From NCBI GenBank assembly GCA_049287205.1, contig JBAQFJ010000001.1:122042-186041 (forward strand): DNA of 64,000 bases. Reading direction: 5' to 3'. The number at the start of each line of letters is the position of its first letter. Within the stretch, counting starts at the first letter, position 1. Under the pieces are notes generated by a model that worked only from the letters and a program-made list of their open reading frames with translations, was not told the origin of the DNA and ran no database searches. The stretch is from Microgenomates group bacterium. Its GTDB lineage: Bacteria > Patescibacteriota > Microgenomatia > UBA10105 > UBA927. Shown here in pieces: positions 77-61,247 of the stretch. The translations under genes were made by a program, and so were the position numbers.

Positions 77-96
77 CCTCAGGGTCAGACCCTCTC
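77..96. repeat. GAGGGTC-W-GACCCTC palindromic element, copy 1
   Basis: cctcAGGGTCAGACCCTctc, about 45 nt upstream of rpiB. Confidence 0.8.
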
Positions 97-139
97 AAGG
101 AGCATTTGCTTCCTTCCAGATTTGTTTTATACTGGTTAC

Positions 140-592
140 ATGACCGTCTTTCTTGGTGCAGACCACCGTGGATTTCCTCTTAAAGAGTATTTAAAAACGT
201 ATCTCGTGGGAAAAGGATATAGTGTTGTTGATTGTGGAAATACCGTGTTAGACCCTCATGATGATTATCCTGATTTTGCGTTTGCTGTTGCAAAAGCCGT
301 GATGGAACATCCAGAAGATCATCGGGGGATTGTGCTGTGTGGGAATGGCGCAGGTGTATCCATTGCAGTGAACAAAATTGATGGGGTACGCGCAGTGTTA
401 GGAGTGACTCCTGAACAGGTGAAAGATGCACGAAATGACGACGATATTAATATTATTGCCCTTGCTTCAAATTATCTCACAGAGAATCAAGCCTCTGGTA
501 TTGTGGATTCGTTTTTAACAACTTCGTTTGGAGCAAAAGAACGATATATTCGTCGTATTGAAAAGATTACGACACAGGAACAGCAAATATAA
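140..592 (+). CDS. rpiB: ribose-5-phosphate isomerase B (RpiB/LacAB family)
   Basis: ORF 122..592 (TTG); the ATG at 140 gives MTVFLGADHRGFPLKEYL..CGNGAGVSIAVNK, typical of RpiB. Start chosen at the conserved N-terminus. Confidence 0.85.
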   Translation: MTVFLGADHRGFPLKEYLKTYLVGKGYSVVDCGNTVLDPHDDYPDFAFAVAKAVMEHPEDHRGIVLCGNGAGVSIAVNKIDGVRAVLGVTPEQVKDARNDDDINIIALASNYLTENQASGIVDSFLTTSFGAKERYIRRIEKITTQEQQI

Positions 593-594
593 TG

Positions 595-978
595 TCATTT
601 TTTTGGCATCGGAAGTGCGTCAATTGCTCGCGCAAGACCTTGTAAGGGAATATTTGCTGTATCTAAATCAATTTGGGATCCTTCCGGCCATGAATCGCTT
701 GCCATGCCAACGCGGAGTATGTGTGGAAATTTTTCTGCGATTGCTTGATTGATAAGCACTCCGTCTTTGTTTGTTTTGTCTCTACTATCAAAATTTACAT
801 CAAGACCTGCAACAACAACACCCTTTTCGATAAATTGGTTCATAGCTTGCAACGCCTCATCTATATTTGCTGCAGTGAGGACAACTTTATGCCCTCCACG
901 TTCAAGGAAAAATTTTTTTTCTTCCATGCGTTCAGGACGGTCGTCGGCAAGAAATATTGGTATGCTTTCAGGACTCAT
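595..978 (-). CDS. CheY-like receiver-domain protein (single domain), putative
   Basis: 127 aa; IFLADDRPE ... VVAGLDVNF ... GMASDS pattern resembles the acidic pocket, phospho-Asp and Ser/Thr of receiver domains. Weak. Confidence 0.4.
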   Translation of the reverse strand: MSPESIPIFLADDRPERMEEKKFFLERGGHKVVLTAANIDEALQAMNQFIEKGVVVAGLDVNFDSRDKTNKDGVLINQAIAEKFPHILRVGMASDSWPEGSQIDLDTANIPLQGLARAIDALPMPKK

Positions 979-1094
979 ACATGCATATATTGATTTTTTA
1001 TATTGTCATATCGTACTTGAATACCGCATTTCTGCATAGAGGGGAATTTCTCTTCTTGCAGGTTTTTCTTGTTTCCTTAATACTTATATATACT

Positions 1095-1736
1095 ATGGAA
1101 ATCATTCCCGGTATCTTAGAGACAGATGTCAAAGAAATTGAACGGAAAATAACACTTGTTGCGCCGTACGTGGAGACGGTTCAAATTGATATTGGCGACA
1201 ATACGATTTTTCCCTGTGACACGGTACATGATATGGCGATCCTCACGCCAATCATCGAAAAATTTACCAAAACCGGAACGAAATTTGAAGTGCATCTGAT
1301 GGTTGCTGATCCTATTTCGTATTTAAAACCGTTGGCTGATGCAGGCGTATCGCGGATAATTGCGCATGTCGAATGTCATGCTCCACGGGAATTTTTAGCA
1401 GAGGCGCGGACGCACGAAATGGAAGTGGGGCTCGCACTTGATGTGGAGTCGGATTTTGACCTTATTGAACCATACTTAGAAGAAGTGGATTTTGTTTTGG
1501 TTATGACGATTGAAACAGGTGCAAGCGGACAGGAATTTGAATCAAACGCAATGGAAACCATAAAAACAATTCACCGCAATTTGCCGGATTTGCCGATTGA
1601 AGTAGACGGCGGCATGACTCCTGATACGGCAAAAATTGTGCAAGAAGCAGGAGTGACACGGATTGTTACGACAAGCTTTATATTTAAAAGTGAACAGGAT
1701 ATTCCTTCAGCAATAGAATCGCTTCAAAATGCGTAA
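1095..1736 (+). CDS. rpe: ribulose-phosphate 3-epimerase
   Basis: ORF 957..1736; the conserved start MEIIPGILETD is at 1095. HLMVADP and EVDGG motifs of Rpe. Confidence 0.85.
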   Translation: MEIIPGILETDVKEIERKITLVAPYVETVQIDIGDNTIFPCDTVHDMAILTPIIEKFTKTGTKFEVHLMVADPISYLKPLADAGVSRIIAHVECHAPREFLAEARTHEMEVGLALDVESDFDLIEPYLEEVDFVLVMTIETGASGQEFESNAMETIKTIHRNLPDLPIEVDGGMTPDTAKIVQEAGVTRIVTTSFIFKSEQDIPSAIESLQNA

Positions 1737-1770
1737 GAGATAACAGGAAAATTTCTTCTTTGTTATACTT

Positions 1771-3639
1771 ATGATAGTTATGTTAGTTCCTGCTTTAAAA
1801 AAATTATGTACGCGTCTTCGTTATGATATTTTGACGATGACAACGACTGCCGGTAGCGGTCATCCGACCTCATCACTTTCTGCAGTGGAGTTAATGGCGA
1901 CACTGTATTTTAAATATCTCAGGCTTGATACAAAAAACCCAGATGCATATACGAATGACCGTGTTATTTTTTCCAAAGGACACGCATCACCATTGCTCTA
2001 CGCGCTGTTTCATGTTGCAGGATGTATTTCTGACAAAGAACTTGGCAACTATCGTCAATTTGGAAGCACTCTTGAAGGGCATCCTACGCCGCGATTTCTA
2101 TACGCAGACATTGCAACGGGATCACTCGGTCAAGGGCTTTCTGTGGGACTTGGTGAGGCCATAGCTGGTGCACCGCATGTGTTTGTTTTATTGGGTGATG
2201 GGGAATTGTCAGAAGGAGCTGTATGGGAAGCGGTGATGGCGGCAGGATTTCATAAAACGAATAATTTAATCGCACTTGTTGATGTAAATGCGCTCGAACA
2301 ATCGGGAAGTACGATGGAAGCGTGGGATACTGAGGTTTACAGAAAACGGTTTGAAAGCTTTGGGTGGGCAACGCTTGTGGTTGATGGGCATGACCTGAAA
2401 ATTTTGGATACGGCGTATCAAAAGGCGCTCGACTATCGTGGCGGCCCGACGGTAATCTTAGCAAAAACCAAAAAGGGAAATGGTATTTCATTTTTGGAAA
2501 ATAAACACGGATGGCATGGAAAAGTGCTTTCCAAAGAACAATTACATACCGCATTGCTTGAACTTGGGGATATAGATACATCATTTGAAGGCATTATCAA
2601 AAAACCAGATGTTTCTCATGAGCAACAGACATCTGCCTCTATGCGGGTTCAAAAAAATAGTACGTATGAAAAAGCGACGACCACAAGAGAGGGATTTGGG
2701 AAAGCAATAGTGCGGCTTGGAGTGGTAAATAGACAGATAATGGTTCTTGACGGTGATCTGGAAAAATCCACGTATACGCATTTGTTTCATGAAGCACTGC
2801 CACATCAATTTTTTGAAGGTCACATTGCAGAACAACTCATTGCAGGCATTGCATCTGGCATGTCTATTTGCGGGATGTATCCTGTCATTTCTTCGTATGG
2901 AAGTTTTTTAACCCGTGCAATCGATCAATTCAGAATGGCTGCAGTATCAGGAATACCCATGATGGTAAATGGATCGCACGGTGGGGTTTCTGTGGGTGCA
3001 GACGGTGTGTCTCAAATGGGGCTTGAAGATATCGCGTTGTTTCGTGCTCTGCCAAATTCCATTGTTATGAGTCCTGCAGATGCAGTGGCCGCAGAAAAAT
3101 TAACAGAACTCATATATGGTTATTCGGGAATTGCATATATCAGGACAACCCGGCCAAGTGTGCCTATTTTGTATGATGAAACAATGGAATTTATAATAGG
3201 CGGAAGTGTCACACACAAAGAACAGGGCTCCACTACGCCAAAGGCTGCGCGGAGTGAAAAAAAACTTGTGACCATTATTGCAACAGGAGTGACGGTGCAT
3301 GAAGCGCTGAAAGCGCAAAAAGAATTAGAAGACAGCGGCGTTCCAACGCGTGTGATTGATTGCTACAGTATTAAACCTGTTGATGCGACGGCAATTCGAA
3401 ACGCCGCAGCAGTTTCGAAACAATTGATTATTGTTGAAGACCACTATCCTGAAGGAGGGTTAGGCGAGGCAGTATTTACCGCACTTTCAGGCACAAATCT
3501 GGAGAGGGTCATACCCTCTCTTCAGATGAACATTACACATTTGGCGGTATACAAGCCGCCAATGTCAGGATCTGCAGAAGAATTGCTTCGATACGAAGAG
3601 ATTGATGCGACGGCAATAATTAGGACTGCGGTTGTATAA
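1771..3639 (+). CDS. tkt: transketolase (N- and C-terminal halves fused)
   Basis: 622 aa; TPP-binding N-terminus (TAGSGHPTSSLSAVELMATLYF, GDGELSEGAVWEA) plus pyrimidine-binding/C-terminal domains. Confidence 0.9.
   Translation: MIVMLVPALKKLCTRLRYDILTMTTTAGSGHPTSSLSAVELMATLYFKYLRLDTKNPDAYTNDRVIFSKGHASPLLYALFHVAGCISDKELGNYRQFGSTLEGHPTPRFLYADIATGSLGQGLSVGLGEAIAGAPHVFVLLGDGELSEGAVWEAVMAAGFHKTNNLIALVDVNALEQSGSTMEAWDTEVYRKRFESFGWATLVVDGHDLKILDTAYQKALDYRGGPTVILAKTKKGNGISFLENKHGWHGKVLSKEQLHTALLELGDIDTSFEGIIKKPDVSHEQQTSASMRVQKNSTYEKATTTREGFGKAIVRLGVVNRQIMVLDGDLEKSTYTHLFHEALPHQFFEGHIAEQLIAGIASGMSICGMYPVISSYGSFLTRAIDQFRMAAVSGIPMMVNGSHGGVSVGADGVSQMGLEDIALFRALPNSIVMSPADAVAAEKLTELIYGYSGIAYIRTTRPSVPILYDETMEFIIGGSVTHKEQGSTTPKAARSEKKLVTIIATGVTVHEALKAQKELEDSGVPTRVIDCYSIKPVDATAIRNAAAVSKQLIIVEDHYPEGGLGEAVFTALSGTNLERVIPSLQMNITHLAVYKPPMSGSAEELLRYEEIDATAIIRTAVV
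3502..3520. repeat. palindromic element, copy 2 (inside tkt coding sequence)
   Basis: GAGAGGGT-CAT-ACCCTCTC, perfect 8-bp stem; encodes LERVIPSL. Confidence 0.7.
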
Positions 3640-3650
3640 TACGGGTACGT

Positions 3651-3950
3651 ATGAGAAGACCAGAAACAGCTTCTCGACCGTCTTCTTTACCTCTTCAAAG
3701 ACCCGAGGCATTAAATCCATATCAGGAAGTTATGCGATATGTTGGTCAAGGGGGAACAGATATCGCTGAATCTTTGAGTGGAGGAATAACGATTACAGAG
3801 CATAGACCTGATGGGGATATTGTCAGTGTTGTTGGCGAAATTGACGAGAATCTTCCCGTCAAACAATCTGAAGGTGTTTCGTTTAGTTCTTTATCCGAGA
3901 ATGCGCAAAAACTTTACTACCAGTTGAAAAAAGAAGGAAGAATTCCGTAA
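3651..3950 (+). CDS. hypothetical small protein
   Basis: 99 aa ORF between tkt and the PPAT gene; no recognisable motif. Confidence 0.3.
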   Translation: MRRPETASRPSSLPLQRPEALNPYQEVMRYVGQGGTDIAESLSGGITITEHRPDGDIVSVVGEIDENLPVKQSEGVSFSSLSENAQKLYYQLKKEGRIP

Positions 3951-3994
3951 TGATGCTCTTTTCCGGTGTTTCAAAAGGTATATAATGAACGCTT

Positions 3995-4999: not shown

Positions 5000-5023
5000 G
5001 TTTTTCCAGTATATACTAAGAAC

Positions 5024-5875: not shown

Positions 5876-5876
5876 G

Positions 5877-6077
5877 TTACACTTGTCCTTTTTGTTGAAG
5901 TCCCAAAAGCCACATGACTGCTTCTTTTTTGTAGCGTCTATCACCTCTGGAGTTAATGCGGATCGCAGGAAGCTTGCCCCGTTTACCCCAACGTTTAATC
6001 GTAAGAGGGGAAACACGCAAAATTTTTGCGACTTCCTTAACAGTTAATAAATCTGGCCATTCATCGCCCATTGCCAT
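5877..6077 (-). CDS. helix-turn-helix DNA-binding protein (excisionase/AlpA-like HTH_17)
   Basis: 66 aa; LTVKEVAKILRVSPLTIKRWGKRGKLPAIRI..RGDRRY is a typical Xis/MerR-type HTH. Confidence 0.6.
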   Translation of the reverse strand: MAMGDEWPDLLTVKEVAKILRVSPLTIKRWGKRGKLPAIRINSRGDRRYKKEAVMWLLGLQQKGQV

Positions 6078-6232
6078 ATGATCTCCTTTTCTTTTCGGGC
6101 AAGAAAAATGTATCGTTAGCAGTCAAACAATATCATGTGATGTCGGACATTGTCAATGGATGAAAATGTTTTGTGGATAAGTTGTGTGATAAAAAACATT
6201 TTACGACGTGAAAAAATAATTTTTTGTTTTTT

Positions 6233-6260
6233 TCAACAAAAATCCCCCTTGCGGGGGAAA
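6233..6260 (-). terminator. intrinsic terminator downstream of rplL
   Basis: Minus strand: tcccccgcaaggggga hairpin (6-bp GC stem, tetraloop) followed by tttttgttg. Confidence 0.7.
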
Positions 6261-6293
6261 TTTGTATTAATACTTTTATTTTAAAAAAAAATA

Positions 6294-6677: not shown

Positions 6678-6741
6678 AATATCTTGTCACCACCTTTCAA
6701 ACAACAATTTGAATTAATAAAAATACAAATTGGAAATTTTT

Positions 6742-7257: not shown

Positions 7258-7333
7258 AGTATATTCCTTTCACACCCTCCGGGTGTCGTCACTCGTACGT
7301 TTTTTCTCTATGAATCGAAAAAACTACGAATTA

Positions 7334-9800: not shown

Positions 9801-9904
9801 GTTTTTGAACATGAATAAACGAAAAAAGAAATCTAAAAGGAATGCATTATGTCTGCATTGTTGTTATTCCTTTGTGATGTTTCTTTTTCTTTCGTCAAGT
9901 TTTG

Positions 9905-9948
9905 ACCCCCGCCAAGGTATTGGTATTTTTGGTGGGGGTTTTGTTTTG
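9905..9948 (+). terminator. intrinsic terminator after the 9099..9800 gene
   Basis: acccccgcc ... ggtgggggt stem (one G.U) followed by tttgtttt. Confidence 0.5.
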
Positions 9949-9961
9949 GAAAAAAGTGGGG

Positions 9962-10009
9962 AAAATAAAAAATTTCTGTCGGTTTTAGCACGTTGGGTTC
10001 AACCGACAG
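9962..10009 (-). terminator. intrinsic terminator after the 10042..10569 gene (convergent)
   Basis: Perfect 9-bp inverted repeat ctgtcggtt/aaccgacag; the minus strand is followed by aaattttttatttt. Confidence 0.5.
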
Positions 10010-10041
10010 ACGGTAATAAAAAAAACGTGGAATTGTTTGAC

Positions 10042-10569
10042 TTAGCGTTCGTCTAAAAGTTTGATGCAGTTGGTATGCAAAGCATCAAGTGGTGAAGCTG
10101 GAGTAGTGATGAACAAATCTGTTAATGCTTGTTGCGCTTCCTCCAACTCTTGACGCGGCCGATCAATAGTAGAATAGATCAGAAATATCTGTAGCTGTTT
10201 GAGCTTTTCTTTCGGTTTTGTTTCAGACTTGATGAAGTTCGGGAGTGTATTCTTAAGAATGTTGGTAACGGCTGCGATATACGATATTTTTTCGGCGCGA
10301 TTGATCGTAACGTTGGACAAGAGCTCTTTGGGTAATTGCTTTCGCGCTTCAGCGACAATCAGGTCTTCCGGTGACAGGAACAGTGTGTCCATCGCAATGA
10401 CAGCGCCGCGTATTGGCAACACTCTGGCGTACAAAAAGAGTTCTCTGATAAGGTAATCATCAACATTTCTTTTCTTGTGTGTGACGTCCCACAACACACA
10501 AGTAAGATATTCATATGTTTGGTTGAGAGTGAATCTCATGCGTGCACCTCCGTAGTTTAATATATTCAT
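10042..10569 (-). CDS. hypothetical protein
   Basis: 175 aa; overlaps the upstream ORF by 29-59 nt in another frame. No recognisable domain. Confidence 0.45.
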   Translation of the reverse strand: MNILNYGGARMRFTLNQTYEYLTCVLWDVTHKKRNVDDYLIRELFLYARVLPIRGAVIAMDTLFLSPEDLIVAEARKQLPKELLSNVTINRAEKISYIAAVTNILKNTLPNFIKSETKPKEKLKQLQIFLIYSTIDRPRQELEEAQQALTDLFITTPASPLDALHTNCIKLLDER

Positions 10570-11215
10570 TGATAAGCGTTTCAGTCTTGTTCAGGTGTTC
10601 TTTTGCTGTTTTTGAACAAATTGATGATCGTGCATTCTGTACGTTATTTAAAATACGTTGCCACAAATCCGTTGATTCTTGCTGAAATGCTGCATTTCTT
10701 TGAATAAACGTCGTGATATGAGACGCTATTGTTTCCTGTTGTTTTCCATTTGCAGTTTTCCATTGAATTTGCAACAACGGTACAATGTTGTGTGCGTTCT
10801 CCACATGTAGAAAACTGTTAATGATCAGTATTTTTTCACAGTCACTTTTACTGATGATGAGCATTTGTTTGATGACCTTAAGATGTTCACGATTACAGGA
10901 AAAAACAAGCTCAATTGCTTGTGTCGCCAGATCAACATGCAGGTGACTTATTGCGAGTCCCATGGTATTGAGAAATGAATCTCTTGCGCGTTTGGATAAC
11001 AGAGTATAAGCAGGAAGTTCCTCGCTGATTAATATGAACATTTTTTGGTAAAAGATTGTTGAGCGACTGAGTAACAATAGATTTTTGGCATACTTCATGA
11101 TCAATTGTTGTTTCATAGGTCTTTCTCCTTTTTTGAAGCAATATGAAATGAGCGCATATGATAGACAGATAGTGCAAATATGGGATACCCATACTGGTAC
11201 ATAACTGTCTACCAA
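10511..11215 (-). CDS. hypothetical protein (C-terminal R-x6-H, HEPN-like motif?)
   Basis: 234 aa (TTG start in the track; internal Met about 33 codons in). C-terminus ...LRRCTHEIHSQPNI. Weak. Confidence 0.45.
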   Translation of the reverse strand: MVDSYVPVWVSHICTICLSYALISYCFKKGERPMKQQLIMKYAKNLLLLSRSTIFYQKMFILISEELPAYTLLSKRARDSFLNTMGLAISHLHVDLATQAIELVFSCNREHLKVIKQMLIISKSDCEKILIINSFLHVENAHNIVPLLQIQWKTANGKQQETIASHITTFIQRNAAFQQESTDLWQRILNNVQNARSSICSKTAKEHLNKTETLINEYIKLRRCTHEIHSQPNI

Positions 11216-16104: not shown

Positions 16105-16638
16105 ATGAAACAATCCATCGCAAAACTAAAAGGATTAGGATATATCATTTGGCATGCCAGGCACATGCTGTATCATTTACTGATCGGTTTAGTGTGGGCG
16201 TGGTTTTTACGGGAAATGTGGGATGTATTCAGTTGGAAAATTACGCTTCTTGCTGTTTTCGGTTCGTTTTTTCCTGATATTGAACATTTGGTATATTTTC
16301 TTATTTCCGGCAGAAAAGACGAATACGCCAAACAGGTAAAAGCATTTTTTAAAGCACGGGAATGGCGGGTACTGACGTCGTTTATTGAAACAGGGCATAA
16401 GTACAATACAAATCTTTCCTATCATAATGTGTATTTTGTTGTGTTCTTACTCGTTCTTGCCATCATCTGTTTTTTGATTGATTGGGAAGCATGGATGGCA
16501 GTACTGGGCGCGATGGTGCTCCATTATTTGTTTGATATTGCAGATGATTACCGTACACTCGGTTATTTAAACGACAATTGGAAACGATGGGGGAACGGAA
16601 AAAAGAAAATTACAGCTTCAAATAAACGAGTGCGATAA
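16105..16638 (+). CDS. hypothetical integral membrane protein
   Basis: 177 aa, multiple hydrophobic segments. Confidence 0.5.
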   Translation: MKQSIAKLKGLGYIIWHARHMLYHLLIGLVWAWFLREMWDVFSWKITLLAVFGSFFPDIEHLVYFLISGRKDEYAKQVKAFFKAREWRVLTSFIETGHKYNTNLSYHNVYFVVFLLVLAIICFLIDWEAWMAVLGAMVLHYLFDIADDYRTLGYLNDNWKRWGNGKKKITASNKRVR

Positions 16639-17101
16639 CGAATAGTACTGCACTTTCTGCAATCATCACCGGATGCGTGAGATAGGTTTTTATAAACACC
16701 TTTTTGTTTTCCAGATGCATATCAGTGACTGAGTGAAGGACGTTGAAAAACTTTTTGTTGAATGGGTAGAGCCATCTGATGCCGCTTCGCATACAGGCTG
16801 TGTCCATGAGAAAATGACTGACAACGCCGATAGTGAGTATATGTATATATGGAAGGATGGTTGGATACAACGTTGCGACCACATACAAACATCCGATGAC
16901 GACCAACCAGAAAAGCGGTGTATGCATTAGGCTTTCCCGGTGATTTTTGGACATGGGAACGTATAATACATCGAAGTCCGGTAGATTTGCCGCAATGATA
17001 CTGAGCGGGTATATTACCTGAGATGCTGCGGGAATCATTCCTGTATCAACGGAAATTTTTGCAAGAACGATGCCGAATACTGTATGTGTAAATGTTGTCA
17101 T
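16610..17101 (-). CDS. membrane-bound metal-dependent hydrolase (YdjM/DUF457-like)
   Basis: 163 aa; MTTFTHTVFGIVLA... N-terminal His motifs and TM profile of YdjM-type hydrolases. Confidence 0.5.
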   Translation of the reverse strand: MTTFTHTVFGIVLAKISVDTGMIPAASQVIYPLSIIAANLPDFDVLYVPMSKNHRESLMHTPLFWLVVIGCLYVVATLYPTILPYIHILTIGVVSHFLMDTACMRSGIRWLYPFNKKFFNVLHSVTDMHLENKKVFIKTYLTHPVMIAESAVLFVIALVYLKL

Positions 17102-17192
17102 AATAGAGTGAAATATTACTATCGGACACTATTTGTACTCTAGAGATAGTTTATGCATAGTACGCGTGTGTTTTCATGTGCAACATCAGTGA

Positions 17193-17789
17193 TTATTTGC
17201 CGGGGGTAAATGTAGACACCATGGTGTCGAAAATCTGTATGCTTTCCGGAGTTGCTTTATTTTTTCCGGAATCATAAATTAATAGATATTGTGTATTCTT
17301 TATAGTAATTGGGCCGACGTGGATAACGGTGCCCGTATTGGAATATCCCATGATTCTATTTGTGAGTTGTCCTGCGACGGTAATTTGTTTGACTACATCT
17401 CCCTTGGTTACAAATTTTATGTTTGGATTCACGTTTTTCGGGTTGGAGACAATAAAAATAGAATATCCTGTATTTGGCGGAGACCATGTATCTAACGTAA
17501 CACTCGTTTTTAATTCAGAACTTTTGGTGTTTAACTCTGCCGGATATTTTGCCGCATAGCCGATTCCTGCAAACCCTTTCCATTCTGCTGTATCAAGAAA
17601 AGTAAGGTCGGGTGATGTGTCTGTCTGTATGATGTTATTTACCCGCGATGGTTGATTCTTTTGTTTCTGTGCGTAATATATCCAGAAACTGAGCGCAATA
17701 GAAAGAAGTACAGCAAGGACAATAATGCTTGTACTTTTTTTTGAGATATTGACCGATGTTTGCTGTGGGTCAATAGAATTGTCTTCCAT
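17193..17789 (-). CDS. hypothetical membrane-anchored protein
   Basis: 198 aa; single N-terminal TM, extracytoplasmic beta-rich domain. Confidence 0.5.
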   Translation of the reverse strand: MEDNSIDPQQTSVNISKKSTSIIVLAVLLSIALSFWIYYAQKQKNQPSRVNNIIQTDTSPDLTFLDTAEWKGFAGIGYAAKYPAELNTKSSELKTSVTLDTWSPPNTGYSIFIVSNPKNVNPNIKFVTKGDVVKQITVAGQLTNRIMGYSNTGTVIHVGPITIKNTQYLLIYDSGKNKATPESIQIFDTMVSTFTPGK

Positions 17790-18545: not shown

Positions 18546-18560
18546 GAGGGTCTGACCCTG
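18546..18560. repeat. palindromic element, copy 3
   Basis: ttcacGAGGGTCTGACCCTG immediately after the rpmG stop. Confidence 0.8.
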
Positions 18561-18563: not shown

Positions 18564-18737
18564 TTAGTCTAAATGACTGGTTTCTTTGTGTTCCGTGTGT
18601 TTTTTGCAGTGCCTGCAATATTTATTGAGGTGCAATTTTTCCGGAGTATTAATTTTATTCCGTTTGGTTATATAGTTGGTTGCTTTGCACACAGTGCAAA
18701 CAAGTCCAATGAGTAGTCGTTGATCTTTCTTTGCCAT
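18564..18737 (-). CDS. rpmG: 50S ribosomal protein L33
   Basis: Not in the >=60 aa track. Minus strand: MAKKDQRLLIGLVCTVCKATNYITKRNKINTPEKLHLNKYCRHCKKHTEHKETSHLD (57 aa), classic L33 zinc-ribbon pattern. A GAGGGTCTGACCCTG element follows the stop. Confidence 0.8.
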   Translation of the reverse strand: MAKKDQRLLIGLVCTVCKATNYITKRNKINTPEKLHLNKYCRHCKKHTEHKETSHLD

Positions 18738-22561: not shown

Positions 22562-22580
22562 GGAGAGGGTCAGACCCTCC
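22562..22580. repeat. palindromic element, copy 4
   Basis: GGAGAGGGTCAGACCCTCC between kbl and the hydrolase gene. Confidence 0.8.
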
Positions 22581-23596: not shown

Positions 23597-23617
23597 GAGG
23601 CTAGGGTCAGACCCTCC
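23597..23617. repeat. palindromic element, copy 5
   Basis: gaggctAGGGTCAGACCCTCC, 5 nt after the hydrolase stop. Confidence 0.8.
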
Positions 23618-38454: not shown

Positions 38455-38503
38455 TATATTGTTTATATGTTTTTCCTATGATACACTGAGGCCACAAAAT
38501 TTT

Positions 38504-39334
38504 ATGAAAAAATATTTTCTTCCAACAATAGTAAAAAAATATAATAAAATTGCAATCGTCGTACTTCTTGGAATTAGCATTGTGGCACTCGGTATGTTTG
38601 TTCTTTCAAAAGTAGTCACAGACAAATCCGATTTTGTTGTTGTTCGAGTAAAAGGCAGTCCTGGTAATTGGTGGTGGGTGACACCGCGGCCGCCCGATTG
38701 GCTTGTTTCTTCAATTCATGTTGGAGACAAAGAATATAGCTCTTTGAACAAACCAACAGCAGAAGTCTTAGACCTCAATATTTATGATGCAGGCGGTTCA
38801 ACAAAAGATTTGTATATGTATGTCCGGCTTGCTGCCAAAAAAAATAGACAGACAGGAAAATATCGGTATAAGGGTGAAAATCTTGAAATAGGAGGACCGA
38901 TCAATTTAAGCTTAAACAACGTGCTTGTCCCTGGTATGGTTACAGAGATTCATGAAGGGTCTAGTATTCCTCAAAAAACATTCCTTTGGAAAACAGTCAC
39001 CGTCCGCATGTTTGATAAATGGCCGTGGGAATATGATGCAATTACCATTGGAGAAGTTATGACAGATGGGGTAAATACCATTGCTGAGATTGTCGATAAA
39101 ACATTTGTTCCGTCTCCACGCGAGCCATACACGTATACTGGACAATTGCTTGCAGCAGGAAGCCCAATCCAACAAGATTTTATTCTTACTCTCAAGATTC
39201 GCGTTGAACCGCGAGGGTCTGACACTATTTTTCGTGAAGAACAATACGTCAAATTAGGAAACGGGTTATGGATACAATTTCCCAGTTATAACGTAAGCGG
39301 CGGAATCATTACTGCAATCCATGAAATTCTTTGA
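38504..39334 (+). CDS. hypothetical membrane-anchored protein (DUF, beta-rich extracytoplasmic domain)
   Basis: ORF 38459..39334; start MKKYFLP at 38504; single TM; no recognisable catalytic motif. Confidence 0.5.
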   Translation: MKKYFLPTIVKKYNKIAIVVLLGISIVALGMFVLSKVVTDKSDFVVVRVKGSPGNWWWVTPRPPDWLVSSIHVGDKEYSSLNKPTAEVLDLNIYDAGGSTKDLYMYVRLAAKKNRQTGKYRYKGENLEIGGPINLSLNNVLVPGMVTEIHEGSSIPQKTFLWKTVTVRMFDKWPWEYDAITIGEVMTDGVNTIAEIVDKTFVPSPREPYTYTGQLLAAGSPIQQDFILTLKIRVEPRGSDTIFREEQYVKLGNGLWIQFPSYNVSGGIITAIHEIL

Positions 39335-53249: not shown

Positions 53250-53250
53250 G

Positions 53251-53277
53251 GTGGGTAGGGTCTGACCCACATTTTTC
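53251..53277 (+). terminator. intrinsic terminator after rpmB (stem built partly from a GGGTCTGACCC repeat copy)
   Basis: gtgggt-agggtctg-acccac hairpin followed by atttttcg. Confidence 0.6.
53257..53268. repeat. palindromic element, copy 6 (within rpmB terminator)
   Basis: AGGGTCTGACCC. Confidence 0.6.
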
Positions 53278-53337
53278 GTAAACTCCATATTGACAGGTAT
53301 ATGAAAACTCCGTACTCTGGTTGTAAGGAGATTTCAT

Positions 53338-53616
53338 ATGGCAAAAAAAACACGTCGAACAGTAACAAACAAACCTCAGAAAAAAATGTTTGACCTTTCG
53401 TCGTGGAATTTTATTTTATTTTTGACACTCGCGTTTATTCTCCTTGTTGTTGTACTTACTCAAATGAATAAAGTTAGTTTTGATCTTCGAAGCAAAGCAG
53501 GGTTAACCTGTCCTACACTTACTACGCCGAGAGCAGAGGATTGCGCAGGCGGCTGGACGTTCAAACGGGATACAAATGGCTGTCTTGCGTTTTTTTGTGA
53601 AGCAAAACAAGAATAG
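53338..53616 (+). CDS. small hypothetical membrane-anchored protein
   Basis: 92 aa; basic N-terminus, one TM, Cys-containing C-terminus. Confidence 0.45.
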   Translation: MAKKTRRTVTNKPQKKMFDLSSWNFILFLTLAFILLVVVLTQMNKVSFDLRSKAGLTCPTLTTPRAEDCAGGWTFKRDTNGCLAFFCEAKQE

Positions 53617-53778: not shown

Positions 53779-53809
53779 GAGGGTCAGACCCTGACAGGGT
53801 CAGACCCTG
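53779..53809. repeat. two tandem copies of the palindromic element (copies 7a/7b)
   Basis: GAGGGTCAGACCCTGA + CAGGGTCAGACCCTG; the second overlaps the last codons and stop of fmt. Confidence 0.8.
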
Positions 53810-55286: not shown

Positions 55287-55290
55287 AGCG

Positions 55291-57405
55291 TTATTCTACC
55301 AGTTTTTTGAATTCCTCGTCTTGGCTGTCAACGGTGGTGAGATACGTAGTGATGGTTGTACGCGCCAGATCGGTTTGTTTGGTTTCCGTATAAAAAATAA
55401 ACAGCGCGTAGTAGGCATCCCGGTAATTGGGTTTTAAATCAATTGCGTGTTTCAGATAGTGTATAGCTTTGTCTGCATCGTTGGTGCGTCCGGAAAGAAT
55501 AGCAAGATTGTATGCAATTTTTGGATCCGCAGGGGATAAGCGTTCAGCTTTTGTCAGTGCCTGTATGGCTGCAGTGACAAGCGTTTCATCAAAAGCGGTG
55601 AGTGCATAGTAGATTTTCGTTTGTGATTTCCAATAATTAACATTATTCGGCGAAATGGCGATAGCTGCGTTATTTTCAGCAAGGGCATATGCTGCAAGCG
55701 TGGATGCAAGTGTTGCATCCTGATTATCCATTGCCGCAACAGAAAGAGATGCCAACACACTCGCATATTCATCGTGGTAAAGCGGTTCGTTTGGATTTAA
55801 CGCTATGGCTGTTTGGAGCGGACGATACGAGGACGCATATTGTCCTTGATGTGCAAGTCTGTAGCCGGTTGCAAATGTTTTATCCGCAATCCATGTCAGG
55901 ACGAGAAATCCGATGATGGCAGTCGCGGCAATACTCACTGTGCCGAGAAAGACCCGTTGCAAGGGGTCGGTAAGCGTTAATTTTTGTTCCCGCATATGCA
56001 TATCTTTTTTTATTGTTACAAACAACGCTCCCGGCATAAGGAACAATAAGAGTTGTGTGACAACAACAGAAAATCCGAAAAAGTTTGTGATGAGGATAGA
56101 CAGCCAGCCGAGCAGTATGCCCCAAACAAGGAGCGTTTGGTCTTTGTGTTTCCGTATTTGGTTGAGACTCCAGATGAGTACTGTCATGAGAAATGAAAGA
56201 TATGCGCCAAGTCCAAATATTCCAGTGGTTGCAAGATAATTGAGATATTCGTTGTGTGCTTTGTTATATAAAAAATCCCATTCACTGGTCAGGTTATGTC
56301 CGACGGGTTTGTTTTGGTAAAAGGCAAATGCGAATGTTTCCGTTCCGGTGCCGATGAGTTGAGTTTTTCGCGAGCTGTTCCACGCATTGATAGCCCCTTG
56401 CCAAACATATTTTCGAATAACTCCAGATTCTGTACCGCCAGTTTCAAGGACTGGGCCTATTGGTATGGTTTCCGCTACTATTGCAGTATCTGTGGCATGC
56501 GAAGCCGCGTTTGACGCGGTGAGTTGTTGTTGTATCCCAGCAAATGTTGTATATCTGTCGATGGTCGGATTATTTGTTCCGGTAAAGAAGAAAAATATGC
56601 CGAGTATAAGATGAAATGCCAGTATCGGTGCAATACGTTGTTTCATTGTGATTTTTTTCTCTTCCTGTGTTTGTCGGAACAGGAAATAGGAACCCATCCA
56701 AAACAGCAGATCAATGACAAGGAATGCGATCAATCCCGAGCGTGACCTTGTATATAACAGGGTGATGAAATAGAGGAGTGTGACTGCAATCGGTACGATC
56801 GTATTCGGCCAATGGGACTTCCTGGCATACGCGATGCTGAGTGTGATGGGGATCAGTGCCACGACATAGGCTGCAAGCCAATTTGGTTGACCAAGTGTGG
56901 AAAATATGCGTGCCTGCACATCCTGCACCCACAGATGTTTATCAATACCAAAATGCTCTAGGACGCCGTAGAGTGAGACAACAACTGCAGTGCTGAAAAG
57001 AAATTTGCCCAGTTTTGGGAGGGCAGTTTTTTCGACATTTGAGGTAAAGGCATAAAAGAGCAGTGTATAACAGAAAATAGACAGCATGCCACCATTAAAC
57101 CGTGAATAATAGCCGAACCAGGAAACGTGCGGGTCTATGGAAAACAGGGTACTCACAAGTTGTGAAAGAACGAATAAAATGATTGGAATATCAAACGGTG
57201 TTTTCGTTATAAAAATGCGTTTCTGAACAATCATTTTACTCACCCACGCACCAACGATTACTGCAGTTATTCCGTACACCGCCATCATCTTATTGTATTC
57301 AAAAAGTTCATAGTTGACTGGGGTAAGGAGAAGCGGGACTAAAAGTGCAAGGAGCGCGTAGCCGATATGGATACATTTGTCGGTGATAGTACTGATTTTT
57401 TGCAT
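55291..57405 (-). CDS. O-antigen ligase-like membrane protein with C-terminal TPR domain
   Basis: 704 aa; over 10 TM N-terminal region; C-terminal TPR repeats. Confidence 0.55.
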   Translation of the reverse strand: MQKISTITDKCIHIGYALLALLVPLLLTPVNYELFEYNKMMAVYGITAVIVGAWVSKMIVQKRIFITKTPFDIPIILFVLSQLVSTLFSIDPHVSWFGYYSRFNGGMLSIFCYTLLFYAFTSNVEKTALPKLGKFLFSTAVVVSLYGVLEHFGIDKHLWVQDVQARIFSTLGQPNWLAAYVVALIPITLSIAYARKSHWPNTIVPIAVTLLYFITLLYTRSRSGLIAFLVIDLLFWMGSYFLFRQTQEEKKITMKQRIAPILAFHLILGIFFFFTGTNNPTIDRYTTFAGIQQQLTASNAASHATDTAIVAETIPIGPVLETGGTESGVIRKYVWQGAINAWNSSRKTQLIGTGTETFAFAFYQNKPVGHNLTSEWDFLYNKAHNEYLNYLATTGIFGLGAYLSFLMTVLIWSLNQIRKHKDQTLLVWGILLGWLSILITNFFGFSVVVTQLLLFLMPGALFVTIKKDMHMREQKLTLTDPLQRVFLGTVSIAATAIIGFLVLTWIADKTFATGYRLAHQGQYASSYRPLQTAIALNPNEPLYHDEYASVLASLSVAAMDNQDATLASTLAAYALAENNAAIAISPNNVNYWKSQTKIYYALTAFDETLVTAAIQALTKAERLSPADPKIAYNLAILSGRTNDADKAIHYLKHAIDLKPNYRDAYYALFIFYTETKQTDLARTTITTYLTTVDSQDEEFKKLVE

Positions 57406-57636
57406 ACGGATTTTAGTATATCATAGGCAACAAGTACGTTGACTTAGGAGGCTAAATGTTATAGGATATTGGTCTGAAGCGGGTTTACCCGTTTTTAGGG
57501 TGTTTTTTGGTTCATTACGACCGAAAAATCCAAAGATGGAGCAAGTCTCATCTTTGTTAATGACTACGTTATTTGCGGATCGTGGAAATGTTCATGATTT
57601 GACGAATAGCCTAGTTTTTAGATCTTTTACAAGTGA

Positions 57637-57843
57637 ATGAAGAATATTATTCGTAGAGGAGCAGACGAGATGGATAATCCATTGGCAAATGTTGTACCAG
57701 AGTTAGGTGTTATGGCAAAAACACTGAGAGAAGTGCTTGAGAAATCAAGTTCTGAATTTTTAGGTGTTAAACCGCAACGTCCTGAAATAACTGAGCAAGA
57801 TTCCCATAAAATAGACGATGAGAACGATGACAAGGAGAACTAA
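57637..57843 (+). CDS. small acidic hypothetical protein
   Basis: 68 aa; GAGGAG RBS upstream; no motif. Confidence 0.3.
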   Translation: MKNIIRRGADEMDNPLANVVPELGVMAKTLREVLEKSSSEFLGVKPQRPEITEQDSHKIDDENDDKEN

Positions 57844-58065
57844 ATGAAAGCCAACTCTAGCTCGAAAGTAACAACTGTATTTGATGCGCTTCAAGCTGCA
57901 ATTCAAGGAGTTTTTCAAAATAAATCTGGAAAAGGGGGCCAAAATACGGCTGTTGTCATCACGAATTCAGTGTCGGTTCAAGACCCATTTGGAGGTTCTG
58001 CGAAAGGTGAAAGTAGAGTTACTATCAGCAAAGAAGTTCACCCGCAGGAACAACAACGCCATTAA
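57844..58065 (+). CDS. small hypothetical protein
   Basis: 73 aa, start abuts the upstream ORF stop. Confidence 0.3.
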   Translation: MKANSSSKVTTVFDALQAAIQGVFQNKSGKGGQNTAVVITNSVSVQDPFGGSAKGESRVTISKEVHPQEQQRH

Positions 58066-58076
58066 TTTGTGTCACC

Positions 58077-58859
58077 TTGAGGAGAAGAGAAATGGAACAA
58101 AAATCGTTCAACGAAAAGAACGCGTGGTTTCTCAAAATTTTGTGGTTGTGTTTCTTTTTTGTTCTGACGGCATTTGGAAGCTATTGGGTGAATAAACAAT
58201 TACCAAAACTTCATCCATGGGCAATCGAATCTTTCGTTTGGTGGTTGGTGACGCTTGTAGCGCTCACGCGTGTAAAGCCGGAAAATAAAGAAGGCTTTTG
58301 GAAAAAAAGTGCCGCGTACGCGGAAAGAGTGCTGCTTAGCCTGTTTAATCTGGCGCTTTTGTCTTTTGCAACCATTACGGAGTTAATTTACTTAGGTAAA
58401 TCGTCGTGGTTTGCCCTTGTGCCGGCGGTGTTATGGATTGTTATCCTAACGCTTATTGTTTTTAGCAATCATCGCCGAGATCATCCGAAAGAAGAATCTG
58501 AATCTTTTGAGGAAGAACAATCTATGCCTTCCGGCTTGGAGAATCTGTCGGTAAAGCATGAATTGTTGGCGGAATTCGGACTTCCTGTTCGATCCGGAGC
58601 ATATCTCAATTTGGCTGATTTTCAAAATGCATTGGCGGATTTGGCGCATGCAAAAATAACCACAGCAAAAGCAGAATTTCTTCAAAGTATTGTTGCCGCG
58701 CAAAATAAAAATGCGATTTCCGCAGAAGAAGCGGCGCAACAGATTAGAAACGAGTTAGGTATCCGAGATACAAATAACGAAACACCAATTGAAGAGACAC
58801 AAAGACTAGTCGTTCCAATTCAATCAACAACAAGAAGTCGGAAAGGTTGGCGTCCATGA
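58077..58859 (+). CDS. hypothetical membrane protein
   Basis: 260 aa; 4 TM in the N-terminal half, helical C-terminus. Confidence 0.5.
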   Translation: MRRREMEQKSFNEKNAWFLKILWLCFFFVLTAFGSYWVNKQLPKLHPWAIESFVWWLVTLVALTRVKPENKEGFWKKSAAYAERVLLSLFNLALLSFATITELIYLGKSSWFALVPAVLWIVILTLIVFSNHRRDHPKEESESFEEEQSMPSGLENLSVKHELLAEFGLPVRSGAYLNLADFQNALADLAHAKITTAKAEFLQSIVAAQNKNAISAEEAAQQIRNELGIRDTNNETPIEETQRLVVPIQSTTRSRKGWRP

Positions 58860-59635
58860 TCACTTATATCTTATGTGGTATACCATTGTTGTATCTTTTT
58901 GCTCTGGTATATCCAAAAAACTGGTTTTCTGTCAATGCGACAGAGCGAGGCGGCATTTTTCGTTTCGGGAAGCTTATCCGAATTGTAGAGCCGGGTTTTC
59001 ATCATATTTGGCCTTGGGAAGAATACAGGGTTGATGATACTCGTGTACAGGAAGCGAAAATTCCGATAACAGATATGGCGGTCATCGGTATTACGAATAT
59101 GTTGTTTCGTATCGACCTCCAGATCTTCTTTCAGATTTTAGATCCGATCGCATTGTATTTGAAATATAAAGGAAACATCATCGATGCGCTAATTTCATTG
59201 GCTGAAGGTGCTTTAACACAGGCGTTGAATCAAATGAAAGACATTAATCCTTTTGATTCAACTGATGGTAAAAATCAGCTGTACGAATTGAGTGAACGGA
59301 TTTTAAGGCAAGATGCGGCGGATTTGGGAATCGTCATCGAGAAATATGTATTTCAGCGGGTGTATCCTCCAAAATCTGTTTTGGCAAAAAGTGAACAGAT
59401 TATGGATGCAGAAGGTACTGCTGCATCGTTGAAAATCCTCAGTGATGCGCAAGCTGCTCAAGCTGAAGCACTTGGGAATAACTTTCTGCCATTGCAGGCA
59501 ATCAAGGCAGTACAGGAAGCTATCGAAAAAGGTTCAGCAAATGGGGCATTCAAAACATTTGTGTTGGGCGAAGGATCTGTGTCTAGTTTGCTCCAGCTGA
59601 TTGATCAGGAAGGAAAGGATAAAAACGATGGATAA
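58847..59635 (+). CDS. SPFH/band-7 (stomatin/prohibitin-like) domain protein
   Basis: 262 aa; N-terminal TM; ...ERGGIFRFGKLIRIVEPGFHHIWPW... typical SPFH core. Confidence 0.55.
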   Translation: MASMITYILCGIPLLYLFALVYPKNWFSVNATERGGIFRFGKLIRIVEPGFHHIWPWEEYRVDDTRVQEAKIPITDMAVIGITNMLFRIDLQIFFQILDPIALYLKYKGNIIDALISLAEGALTQALNQMKDINPFDSTDGKNQLYELSERILRQDAADLGIVIEKYVFQRVYPPKSVLAKSEQIMDAEGTAASLKILSDAQAAQAEALGNNFLPLQAIKAVQEAIEKGSANGAFKTFVLGEGSVSSLLQLIDQEGKDKNDG

Positions 59636-60131
59636 TTTCATTGTTCTTTTGGTTTTTCAAGGATGGGAATTTGTCAAAACGTTACGAAAGTATTTGCCTG
59701 GGGGACTCTATCTTGTCCTTTGCCTGCTTGTTGCTTTTTGGTATAAAGCACCAATCCTCCCGATTTTTCGATCAATGTCCGATGCAACCTATACCTATGG
59801 AATTCTTACGATTTCCTTTGTTGCTTGGACAATCGCGTATTGGGCTTTTGTCCTGACGAGGAAAGAGTATGAAATTCCACCAAAAACAGAAAAGCAGAAA
59901 GCTACGATACAGGTCGGAAACAGAAATTTGGTTTCCGTGCTATTCGGTGTCGTAGCAGTTCTAATTTTTTGGTTGTTGGGAATTTCAAGATTAGCATTGA
60001 TCATCATCGGCGTTATCCAGTTTTCGGCGTTTGTGTTTGGAGATAAATTTCAACAACAGGCGGAGTATATCCTGCCGAAGTTTGTTAATTTTTCTCTCTT
60101 GCTTTTGGGTGCATGGATTGTCGGTGCTTAG
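59628..60131 (+). CDS. hypothetical integral membrane protein
   Basis: ORF 59601..60131; start MDNFIV at 59628 overlaps the SPFH gene stop. Confidence 0.45.
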   Translation: MDNFIVLLVFQGWEFVKTLRKYLPGGLYLVLCLLVAFWYKAPILPIFRSMSDATYTYGILTISFVAWTIAYWAFVLTRKEYEIPPKTEKQKATIQVGNRNLVSVLFGVVAVLIFWLLGISRLALIIIGVIQFSAFVFGDKFQQQAEYILPKFVNFSLLLLGAWIVGA

Positions 60132-60307
60132 TTTCTTCATTCACAACCTGTATAAAAACAGGATGCCTGAAAGGTAAAAAAATTGCGACTGTCTATCTGA
60201 CGGTTTCGATTTTTCTTTCCGGTTCGAGCTGGTGTAGTGAAATTTGATTGACCAATCTATCGGTCTTCTTATTTCACTGCACCTGCTCTTTTTCCTTCCT
60301 ACAATGT

Positions 60308-60326
60308 GGAGAGGGTCAGACCCTCG
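60308..60326. repeat. palindromic element, copy 8
   Basis: GGAGAGGGTCAGACCCTCG. Confidence 0.8.
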
Positions 60327-60368
60327 CTCGTTGTAGGCAGAGAAGAGAGTATTTCACAATATAAATTT

Positions 60369-60386
60369 CACGAGGGTCAGACCCTG
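60369..60386. repeat. palindromic element, copy 9
   Basis: ttcacGAGGGTCAGACCCTG; shares a 20-nt extended context with copy 3. Confidence 0.8.
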
Positions 60387-60394
60387 TAAACAAT

Positions 60395-61201
60395 ATGAGC
60401 ATTGAACGCGGTGGTTTCAGTTTTAAAAATAATATCAATTATTCTCCGGTGAAAATAATTCCGGAGGGTTGGGGAAACGTATTTGTTCACTACGAGCCAA
60501 ATAATTGGCAACGTACAACGCCGGTTATCGATTCGGGCATACCGGATCATGGCGCACAGGGAGCTATTACCCTTCAAATAGGAAAAGAAAAACCGACAAC
60601 TATACCTAAAGGAGAAGTTACAGTCCCTGACGGGGCGACCGTTACCTGTACCTATTTTACGAAAAACGATCCAAAAGGCATGCAACCGATAACTATAGAA
60701 CTATACAGGAACGGGTCTTCACCAACAGTTTTTGATCCAAATAAAAATACTACGGAAGAAAAGAAATTTTCTCTTGAGAGTCAGTCTGTGTTAACTGGTG
60801 AAGAATTTCCCAATCCACTAGAGCCAAAAATGAAAGTGTGGGAAGAAAAAAATCCAACATATATAACACAATCTCAGGTTGAGGAAATTTTAGGTTTTAA
60901 TGTTTCTATGCTGATCAAAAAAGGATTTATTCATCCACGATATCATGATCACAAAGGCACGATTAAAGAGTTTACGATGCATGATGTTTTACGCGCCTTT
61001 CTTATAAAAACGGTAAAGACGGAAAATCATCTGGTATTTTGGAGTCAAATCCGATCTTCGACTGTGACACCGTTTACCGAAAAGAATGTTCAATATCTTC
61101 GAGAGCAATCAGATTGGCCGGAGTTAGTGAAACGCGGGAAAACGTTTGGAATAGATGTAGAGCAATATGCAGATAGTCTTTTGAAGAATATGTCGCGATA
61201 A
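60395..61201 (+). CDS. hypothetical protein
   Basis: 268 aa, no recognisable domain; bracketed by GAGGGTCAGACCCT copies. Confidence 0.5.
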   Translation: MSIERGGFSFKNNINYSPVKIIPEGWGNVFVHYEPNNWQRTTPVIDSGIPDHGAQGAITLQIGKEKPTTIPKGEVTVPDGATVTCTYFTKNDPKGMQPITIELYRNGSSPTVFDPNKNTTEEKKFSLESQSVLTGEEFPNPLEPKMKVWEEKNPTYITQSQVEEILGFNVSMLIKKGFIHPRYHDHKGTIKEFTMHDVLRAFLIKTVKTENHLVFWSQIRSSTVTPFTEKNVQYLREQSDWPELVKRGKTFGIDVEQYADSLLKNMSR

Positions 61202-61228
61202 TATATCTCTATATGTGAGTATTCCATA

Positions 61229-61247
61229 GCGAGGGTCAGACCCTCTC
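61229..61247. repeat. palindromic element, copy 10
   Basis: gcGAGGGTCAGACCCTCTC, upstream of mreB. Confidence 0.8.

Follow-up and report, generated by a model that had tools for sequence, protein, structure and literature searches.

A dispersed short palindrome in a Microgenomates genome is a probable REP-like mobile element linked to RAYT-type transposases

RESULTS

A near-palindromic repeat is over-represented in the 64-kb window

The DNA analyzed here is a 64,000-nucleotide segment of a Microgenomates group bacterium (assembly GCA_049287205.1, contig JBAQFJ010000001.1, positions 122,042 to 186,041 of the forward strand), hereafter called the window. It carries rpiB, a transketolase gene, rpmG, rpmB, fmt, and mreB, and a short near-palindromic repeat occurs at many places along it. 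An earlier note made from the sequence had counted at least 11 copies of this repeat and considered them too frequent to be due to chance. We found 12 sites matching GAGGGTCWGACCCTC with up to two mismatches, starting at positions 80, 3504, 18546, 22565, 23602, 39213, 53256, 53779, 53795, 60311, 60372, and 61231. The earlier note had placed them correctly to within one or two bases. Dinucleotide shuffles of the window gave a mean of 0.06 sites, and 0 of 100 shuffles reached 12, which confirms the excess over chance within the window. The exact 13-mer AGGGTCWGACCCT was present in nine of the 12 sites, the other three having one mismatch, and the repeat core was the most over-represented 11-mer and 13-mer of the window. 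The G+C content was 42%, slightly above the 40% assumed before, and GC skew was positive throughout. Two partial half-sites had also been reported, at 39213 and 63611. The one at 39213 is a degenerate in-frame copy. That at 63611, within a penicillin-binding protein gene, codes for G-S-D-P, which is conserved in relatives, and it is probably a chance match since the DNA of the relatives does not match the core there.

The core reads AGGGTC-N-GACCCT and in this lineage is often extended to TGGAG-core-CTCC or CG-core-CG. Some copies share flanks: ttcacGAGGGTC..CCCTG is found at copies 18546 and 60372, (T)GGAGAGGGTC at copies 3504, 22565, and 60311, and the right flank ATTTTTCG at copies 39213 and 53256. 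For the extended flanks described earlier, the numbering of the copies that carry them was off by one. A repeat search of the window revealed no sequence common to the copies beyond ~21 bp, so they are not pieces of one duplicated segment, and a longer unit resembling a miniature inverted-repeat transposable element (MITE) was ruled out. One tandem pair has a 16-nt period (53779/53795), and another pair is separated by 61 nt (60311/60372). The word GTGAAAT/ATTTCAC, seen near several copies, was not enriched (12 observed versus 17 expected). The central base is A or T in a 9:3 ratio on the plus strand of the window, which is not significant, and it flips between orthologous copies. Rfam contained no family matching the repeat.

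Most copies lie between genes

Nine of the 12 copies are fully intergenic, another overlaps the stop codon of fmt, and the other two (3504 and 39213) are in-frame copies inside open reading frames (ORFs), although the repeat had been described as sitting at gene borders. About 10 of the 12 copies thus fall in the ~10% of the sequence that is non-coding (binomial estimate ~1e-8), and seven intergenic sites are within 30 nt of a stop codon. Proximity to the stops of rpmG, rpmB (ribosomal protein L28), a hydrolase gene, and fmt was borne out, as was the location of copies upstream of rpiB, mreB, and ORF 60395-61201.

The first copy, CAGGGTCAGACCCTC (80..94), lies 11 nt past the stop codon of a gene cut by the window start and is upstream of rpiB. 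The transketolase copy (3502..3519, plus strand) reads GAG AGG GTC ATA CCC TCT in frame, giving E-R-V-I-P-S with one core mismatch. GAGGGTCTGACCCTG (18546..18560) is 3 nt downstream of the stop codon of rpmG, which occupies 18564-18737 on the minus strand; its left flank, TGAAGCTA..TTTTCAC, resembles the spacer of doublets in related genomes described below. The extended copy GGAGAGGGTCAGACCCTCC (22562..22580) is in a 29-nt spacer leading from a kbl/bioF-like gene to the hydrolase gene, and TAGGGTCAGACCCTC (23602..23616) lies 9 nt past the hydrolase stop codon, followed by a separate canonical hairpin and T-run terminator. The degenerate copy GAGGGTCTGACACTA (39213..39227, plus strand) is read in frame as G-S-D-T within the DUF4330-like ORF 38459-39334. 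A second degenerate copy, TAGGGTCTGACCCAC (53256..53270), begins 6 nt past the L28 stop codon and just upstream of a promoter-like TTGACA-17-TACTCT site. The two tandem units (53779..53793 and 53795..53809) lie between fmt and a convergent 92-aa ORF, and the core of the second unit contains the TGA with which fmt ends (53800-53802, minus strand). GGAGAGGGTCAGACCCTC (60308..60325) sits in the apical loop of the final hairpin in a conserved structured non-coding block (60132-60345). GAGGGTCAGACCCTG (60372..60386) precedes the ATG of ORF 60395-61201 by 8 nt, and GAGGGTCAGACCCTCTC (61231..61247) is between that ORF and mreB.

The predicted fold of the unit is a 6-bp stem closed by a 3-nt loop, with a free energy of -4.2 kcal/mol for DNA and -7.4 kcal/mol for RNA, and the extended 21-mer is predicted to be more stable (-8.6 and -15.2 kcal/mol, respectively). 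A T-run follows only two of the 12 copies, 53256 and 39213. Intrinsic (Rho-independent) terminators consist of a G+C-rich hairpin with an immediate U-run, and on this basis the repeat was rejected as one, in line with the earlier view that it is not a classical terminator.

Copy number varies at orthologous sites in relatives

Syntenic DNA was found in GCA_964609895.1 (segments L122 and L126), a JGI contig (L123 and L127), an ENA contig (L129), and another JGI contig (L238). The O-antigen-ligase-like protein of the window (704 aa, 55291-57405) is 73-75% identical to its counterparts in L122 and L123 and has homologues from Gottesmanbacteria and other Patescibacteria. The repeat core was also the top 11-mer and 13-mer in L122. 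By contrast with L122, no copy was present in the 22 kb of L123, even when three mismatches to the 15-mer were allowed.

At orthologous intergenic sites, where the earlier note had suggested looking, the motif was present in zero, one, or two copies. Upstream of mreB there is one copy in the window, two in L122, and none in L123; at the end of fmt the numbers are two, one, and zero, respectively. After the L28 gene and upstream of the 268-aa gene (ORF 60395-61201), the window and L122 each have one copy and L123 has none. The L122 ortholog of copy 60372 has a flipped central base. The fmt stop codon TGA is inside the core in L122 also (~13610), and in L123 the repeat and the spacer are absent and fmt abuts the next gene. 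Since the fmt stop lies inside the core in both the window and L122, the insertion replaced the native 3′ end of fmt. At the position of copy 60311, L122 and L123 have a 4-5-nt loop instead, and therefore this copy is an insertion specific to the window lineage.

Doublets provided a further case of variation. The spacer that leads from the PF05635-like gene to rpiB holds a single unit in the window and a doublet with a 33-nt period in L126, L127, and L129, consisting of GGAGAGGGTCWGACCCTCTC, a spacer of ~18 nt, and GAGGGTCTGACCCTC. A doublet with a similar spacer (..TGAAGCTA..) is found upstream of mreB in L122, that is, at a second, unrelated locus, and the window has a single unit at both. 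The left flank of copy 61231 matches unit B of the L122 doublet and its right flank matches unit A (the outer flanks). This pattern suggests either that a doublet collapsed into a single unit or that the opposite change took place.

In the relatives, the gene truncated at the start of the window (window 1-68) encodes a PF05635 (23S_rRNA_IVP / four-helix-bundle) protein (L126 7948-8292, L127 7930-8271, and L129 1073-1414). Repeats of this kind seem to fragment short-read assemblies: a 5,095-bp Logan contig of the same organism (L121, SRR28062503_69519) ends exactly at the fmt-end repeat pair, and most contigs bearing homologues of the transposase described below are just 1-3 kb.

Copies are carried in frame within protein-coding genes

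In seven close homologues of the window transketolase, the repeat position reads (E/D)RVRPS, which is what a perfect core encodes, and the window protein has ERVIPS. A perfect core was confirmed at the DNA level in L126, L127, L129, and L238. The segment of ~9 residues is absent from more distant transketolases of the Candidate Phyla Radiation (CPR) and from human TKT. In L126, a second in-frame copy lies 16 nt downstream (QGQT), and in L238 an extra in-frame copy lies 16 nt upstream (GSDPD), with protein length unchanged. Because the gain is on the 3′ side in L126 and on the 5′ side in L238, the transketolase copy was duplicated independently at least twice.

In-frame copies or doublets were found in other genes as well, including those for isoleucyl-tRNA synthetase (IleRS) and the transposase itself in Curtissbacteria. 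Core doublets are in frame in a gene for an EF-G-family translation GTPase on low-GC contigs (L165 3093-3123, L189 4900-4930, and L193 5249-5279) and in a 302-aa ORF of a Saccharibacteria metagenome-assembled genome (MAG; L098 2574-2612), where they are read as peptides of the GSDP and GQTL types. A stop interrupts the core in just one reading frame out of six, leaving five open. It is TGA, which arises when the central base is T and is the one used by fmt.

In two Patescibacteria genomes, L250 and L252, the RAYT-like transposase genes (described below) each have two in-frame cores at equivalent positions of the coding sequence (10159 and 10429 in L250, 10151 and 10418 in L252), resembling the repeat-in-tnpA feature of another transposase subclass. 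Separately, a 36-nt run 5′ of the transketolase repeat (window ~3466-3501, GGCGAGGCAGTATTTACCGCACTTTCAGGCACAAAT) is invariant in four genomes (the window, L126, L127, and L129), including 12 synonymous positions. It is the longest invariant run in transketolase genes that are 75-82% identical overall, and L238 differs from it; gene conversion and a nucleotide-level function are possibilities.

The core brackets a Y1 transposase gene in other genomes

We scanned metagenome contigs for doublets, defined as two cores 3-33 nt apart, and obtained at least 120 contigs (784 kb) with at least 300 cores; the counts of contigs, ORF families, and doublets given in this section are among the matches listed by that scan. 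The G+C content of these contigs ranged from 0.30 to 0.74. Flanks were lineage specific, and the palindrome was lengthened by at least three bases in 22% of copies. In 105 of 141 doublets (74%) the two units had opposite central bases, an inverted orientation as in REPINs, the known doublets of repetitive extragenic palindromic (REP) sequences.

In an all-against-all comparison, the most recurrent ORF family was PF01797 (Y1_Tnp), at 12 loci with a G+C content of 0.33-0.65. Cores bracketed the Y1_Tnp gene at all 10 loci where both flanks could be checked, as inverted copies directly upstream of the start codon and at or across the 3′ end. Most of these proteins have 231-257 aa (208-257 aa in the motif alignment), two (L224 and L244) have 325-330 aa, and one is truncated; their Pfam scores are above the gathering threshold. 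The best NCBIfam match was the REP-associated tyrosine transposase (RAYT) model NF047646, with E values down to 4e-21 and scores below the curated cut-off, and the sole PDB match was E. coli TnpA-REP (4ER8). Alignment of the 12 proteins revealed the motifs (M)(P/S)NH[FYV]H, FQ/WE, Y[IV]HLNP or YIE.NP, and SS. Pfam assigned only Y1_Tnp, even to the 325-330-aa L224 and L244 proteins, in which a C-terminal helix-turn-helix-like extension, a feature of the TIRYT group discussed below, was sought; the CPR members are shorter.

The proteins were also compared with IS200/IS605 insertion sequences, and this assignment was rejected given their Y...NP motif and the weaker score of the IS200 NCBIfam model (E ~1e-3 versus 1e-21 for the RAYT model). 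No tnpB was seen adjoining the Y1_Tnp genes examined.

More than 7,800 homologues of the CPR-type transposase were scored, and the closest came from Levybacteria, Curtissbacteria, and other Patescibacteria. In two Patescibacteria genomes the Y1 gene is bracketed in the same manner with C or G as the central base, indicating that this base is free. Lentibacillus salicampi has the same gene layout, with one flank carrying a near-core.

In a 15-mer scan of a genome collection, the matches listed were dominated by single ones in unrelated, mostly GC-rich genomes, with ~1,100 expected by chance (estimate). Twelve of the loci listed carried at least two 11-mer cores (GGGTC-W-GACCC), no more than 8 kb apart. 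Named taxa with such loci include Bacillus methanolicus PB1; Lentibacillus salicampi, which also has the transposase gene; and MAGs of Leptospirales, Casimicrobiaceae, Omnitrophota, Saccharibacteria, and Chloroflexota.

One Patescibacteria contig (L251) has RAYT-like genes at 9885-10965 and 16530-17460 that are flanked by the different palindromes CAGGTTWAACCTG and AGGTGTCCTACCTAGACCACCT, and no AGGGTCNGACCCT is present.

DISCUSSION

A REP-like element probably spread by a RAYT-type enzyme

We propose, with a probability of roughly 0.78, that the repeat belongs to a family of non-autonomous mobile palindromes of the REP-like or terminal inverted repeat (TIR) type, spread by an IS200-like Y1 transposase of the RAYT or TIR-associated (TIRYT) type. 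This reading rests on the copy-number polymorphism among relatives, the insertions in a hairpin loop and in coding sequence, and the cores that bracket RAYT-like genes elsewhere. A REP- or MITE-like element had been one of several candidates put forward in the earlier note, and the REP-like version of it gained support from these observations. By its behaviour and by its association in other genomes, the element would fit the REP/TIR-RAYT kind.

In the proposed mechanism, an HUH Y1 transposase of the RAYT/TIRYT type would recognize the folded hairpin on single-stranded DNA, cut it, and rejoin it. This step is modelled on work with TnpA-REP and IS200/IS605 (PMC3333891, PMC8266576, PMC6006769). 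Units would be copied to new sites, often right beside existing ones, which would explain the 16-33-nt doublets; the repeated rise of new units at this distance from older ones suggests a preference for existing units as targets. Copies would survive where they do little harm, that is, past stop codons, in short spacers, in RNA hairpin loops, and in frame in protein surface loops.

Comparison with known repeat families helps to place the element. The signature of TnpAY1 subclass 2.1 comprises NHVH or NH[YF]H, W[EQ] or FQ, YIELNP or Y[IV]HLNP, and an SS tail, with a median length of ~238 aa (PMC6006769, Table 1), and the motifs of the core-linked transposases match this signature when aligned with it. 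Quentin et al. equated this subclass with the Group 1 RAYTs of Bertels (PMC5581495) and the TIRYTs of Di Nocera (PMC6006769). TIRYTs are flanked by inverted repeats that have GGGGWSAS in common and belong to moderately abundant families, whose members occur singly, as doublets, and in clusters (PMC3733652). The sequence aGGGTCAG agrees with GGGGWSAS at seven of eight positions at most loci, and GGGGTCAG, found in L224, L244, and L149, agrees at all eight. As in these TIRYT systems (TIRtrons), the gene is bracketed by inverted copies, some of them over its 5′ or 3′ end, the repeats occur as singles, doublets, and clusters, and the taxonomic range is very wide. Unlike them, the unit described here is very short and fully self-complementary around a single central base, reaches ~1 copy per 5 kb in a ~1-Mb CPR genome, and has in-frame copies in coding genes.

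The element also resembles the classical REP, bacterial interspersed mosaic element (BIME), and REPIN sequences of Escherichia, Pseudomonas, and Stenotrophomonas (PMC3333891, PMC3116915, PMC8266576), which are short, mainly extragenic palindromes at the 3′ ends of co-directional or convergent genes, with mostly inverted doublets and a cognate Y1 HUH gene flanked by repeats. The protein is of a different RAYT group, however, and REPs have been described as species specific (PMC6006769), whereas the core found here is common to several phyla. REPs within genes are known (PMC3733652). Palindromes tolerated in frame in protein genes, and in non-coding RNA, are likewise described for Rickettsia palindromic elements (RPEs), but RPEs are ~100-150 bp long, are tagged with CGTC, and are not associated with any known transposase (PMC3733652), while the present unit is 15-21 bp and tied to the Y1 family. 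The subterminal hairpins of IS200/IS605 elements, small DNA hairpins read on a single strand by a Y1 HUH enzyme, provide the model for the proposed mechanism. IS200 TnpA differs in having Y...Q rather than Y...NP and in being a multi-copy gene that moves along with its hairpins; in the present case, hairpins are far more numerous than any gene.

Several observations weigh against the proposal that the repeat is a REP-like element mobilized by such an enzyme. A tblastn search found no Y1 transposase gene in the window or in ~100 kb of its close relatives (L121-L129), with nothing at E <5e-4 and a few weak matches that were not at Y1 genes. Quentin et al. found no REP-like sequences beside subclass 2.1 genes (PMC6006769). 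Unlike classical REPs, the hairpin has no GTAG/GTGG at its foot, and base frequencies at the 15 positions flanking either side of 285 distinct copies revealed neither this tag nor CGTC as a conserved feature; in addition, the perfect palindrome of 13-21 bp is shorter than the imperfect or bulged 20-40-bp REP units. Part of the core's constancy across taxa follows from the search pattern itself. A related transposase of L251 is flanked by CAGGTTWAACCTG instead, although repeat cores appear to co-vary with transposase subfamily in this case, which fits enzyme-repeat co-evolution. Finally, copies persist at the same spacers between species with only ~75% protein identity, and such persistence could be due to selection on a role in the host instead of continued mobility.

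Alternative explanations

The repeats could be fossils, laid down by a RAYT-type enzyme in an ancestor and left behind when this genome lost the transposase, altered afterwards by slippage or recombination between palindromes, and kept as hairpins at mRNA 3′ ends. We regard this as unlikely. The failure to find a transposase gene in the window or in ~100 kb of its relatives would be expected for fossils, but such absence from ~6% of the genome says little. The occupation of many orthologous spacers in both the window and L122, the seven intergenic sites within 30 nt of a stop codon, and the resemblance of copy 61231 to a collapsed doublet are also consistent with relics, while copy 60311, present in the window lineage only, and the two or more independent duplications in transketolase point to fairly recent activity.

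The perfect 7-1-7 palindrome could instead suggest an operator, that is, a binding site of a dimeric global regulator or nucleoid-associated protein that arose by selection rather than transposition. Copies 22565, 60372, 61231, and 80 sit 8-40 nt upstream of start codons, and one copy is just upstream of a conserved -35 box. We nevertheless consider a regulator site highly improbable in view of the in-frame copies in transketolase, IleRS, the translation GTPase, and the 302-aa ORF of L098, the insertion into the loop of an RNA hairpin, the differing number of copies within one spacer, and the recurrence of the same core at G+C contents of 0.30-0.74, where it brackets transposase genes. Scarcely more weight, and if anything a little less, can be given to a hairpin-only terminator or mRNA 3′-end stabilizer that evolved in place as the normal type of this lineage. 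Most intergenic copies do lie 3-30 nt past a stop codon, and the predicted RNA hairpins (-7.4 to -15.2 kcal/mol) would suit such a role. Ten of the 12 copies lack a U-run, though, and copy 23602 is followed by its own canonical terminator; other copies are within genes or directly before start codons in 29-nt co-directional spacers, and L123 does without any copy at four orthologous gene ends or spacers. A mobile element could still have taken on termination or stabilization as a secondary role, and copies a few nucleotides past stop codons may serve in this way as 3′ mRNA hairpins.

The strong over-representation would also fit a sequence used in DNA uptake or a word under the influence of restriction-modification, and CPR bacteria encode competence-type proteins (a DprA gene is near the syntenic region, and L251 has a pilin cluster). 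Known uptake sequences lack symmetry, occur at higher density, and are frequent in coding DNA regardless of frame, and restriction sites are normally avoided in genomes rather than enriched. The present word is palindromic, mostly intergenic, and found about once per 5 kb, compared with about once per kb for the 9-12-mer DNA uptake sequences and uptake signal sequences (DUS/USS), and it is common to unrelated phyla and tied to a transposase; the chance that either explanation holds seems close to negligible. Regulator, terminator, uptake, and restriction readings are all disfavored by the copies that lie in frame, the insertion in a loop, the varying number of copies per spacer, and the cross-phylum link to a transposase, and the regulatory, uptake, and restriction candidates raised in the earlier note thus found no support.

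Implications of a probable mobile palindrome in reduced genomes

We put forward tentatively, as a proposition with somewhat less than even odds, that Group 1/subclass 2.1/TIRYT, the largest and most widely distributed of the RAYT groups, has the AGGGTC-N-GACCCT hairpin as its cognate DNA substrate, with the same ~13-bp core kept across phyla. If this were true, the core would have been kept in CPR bacteria, Bacillota, Omnitrophota, Leptospirales, Chloroflexota, Actinomycetota, and Betaproteobacteria at G+C contents of 0.30-0.74, and in reduced CPR genomes the repeat would be a routine component that provides stop codons, 3′ hairpins, and in-frame inserts (GSDP, RVRPS, and GQTL) in essential proteins.

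REPs, RAYTs, TIRYTs, and intragenic REPs are already known. What is new is a very short, untagged, perfect palindrome that is dense in a CPR genome and has a core common to several phyla. It also offers a defined short hairpin as a concrete candidate DNA partner of the Group 1/subclass 2.1 RAYT-like transposases; the main survey had found no REP-like sequences for this subclass and had left its DNA partner open (PMC6006769). In the library of papers searched, we found no report of such repeats from Patescibacteria, and a search with the core sequence returned unrelated papers only. CPR/Patescibacteria genomes are ~1 Mb in size and tightly packed, and a density of ~1 copy per 5 kb (perhaps ~200 copies per genome, by extrapolation) is unexpected. 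The in-frame copies in transketolase, IleRS, the translation GTPase, and the transposase are natural experiments on the tolerance of proteins to inserts. For annotation, recognizing the element avoids misreading it as a regulator site or terminator.

Other conserved features of the window

Between ORF 59601-60131 and ORF 60395-61201 lies a non-coding block of ~215-225 nt, which three genomes share in almost identical form (window 60132-60345, plus strand; L122 6925-7150, minus strand; L123 7600-7810, minus strand). It is predicted to fold into a closing stem and four hairpins, with six of 70 predicted pairs showing compensatory changes among only three sequences. Rfam contained no family matching the block, which is a candidate for a new structured RNA or leader in Microgenomates.

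The promoter-like site downstream of the L28 gene (TTGACA-17 nt-TACTCT, window 53275-53337) is kept in the window, L122, and L123, upstream of the 92-aa ORF (53338-53616), and in two of these three genomes the repeat lies directly upstream of it.

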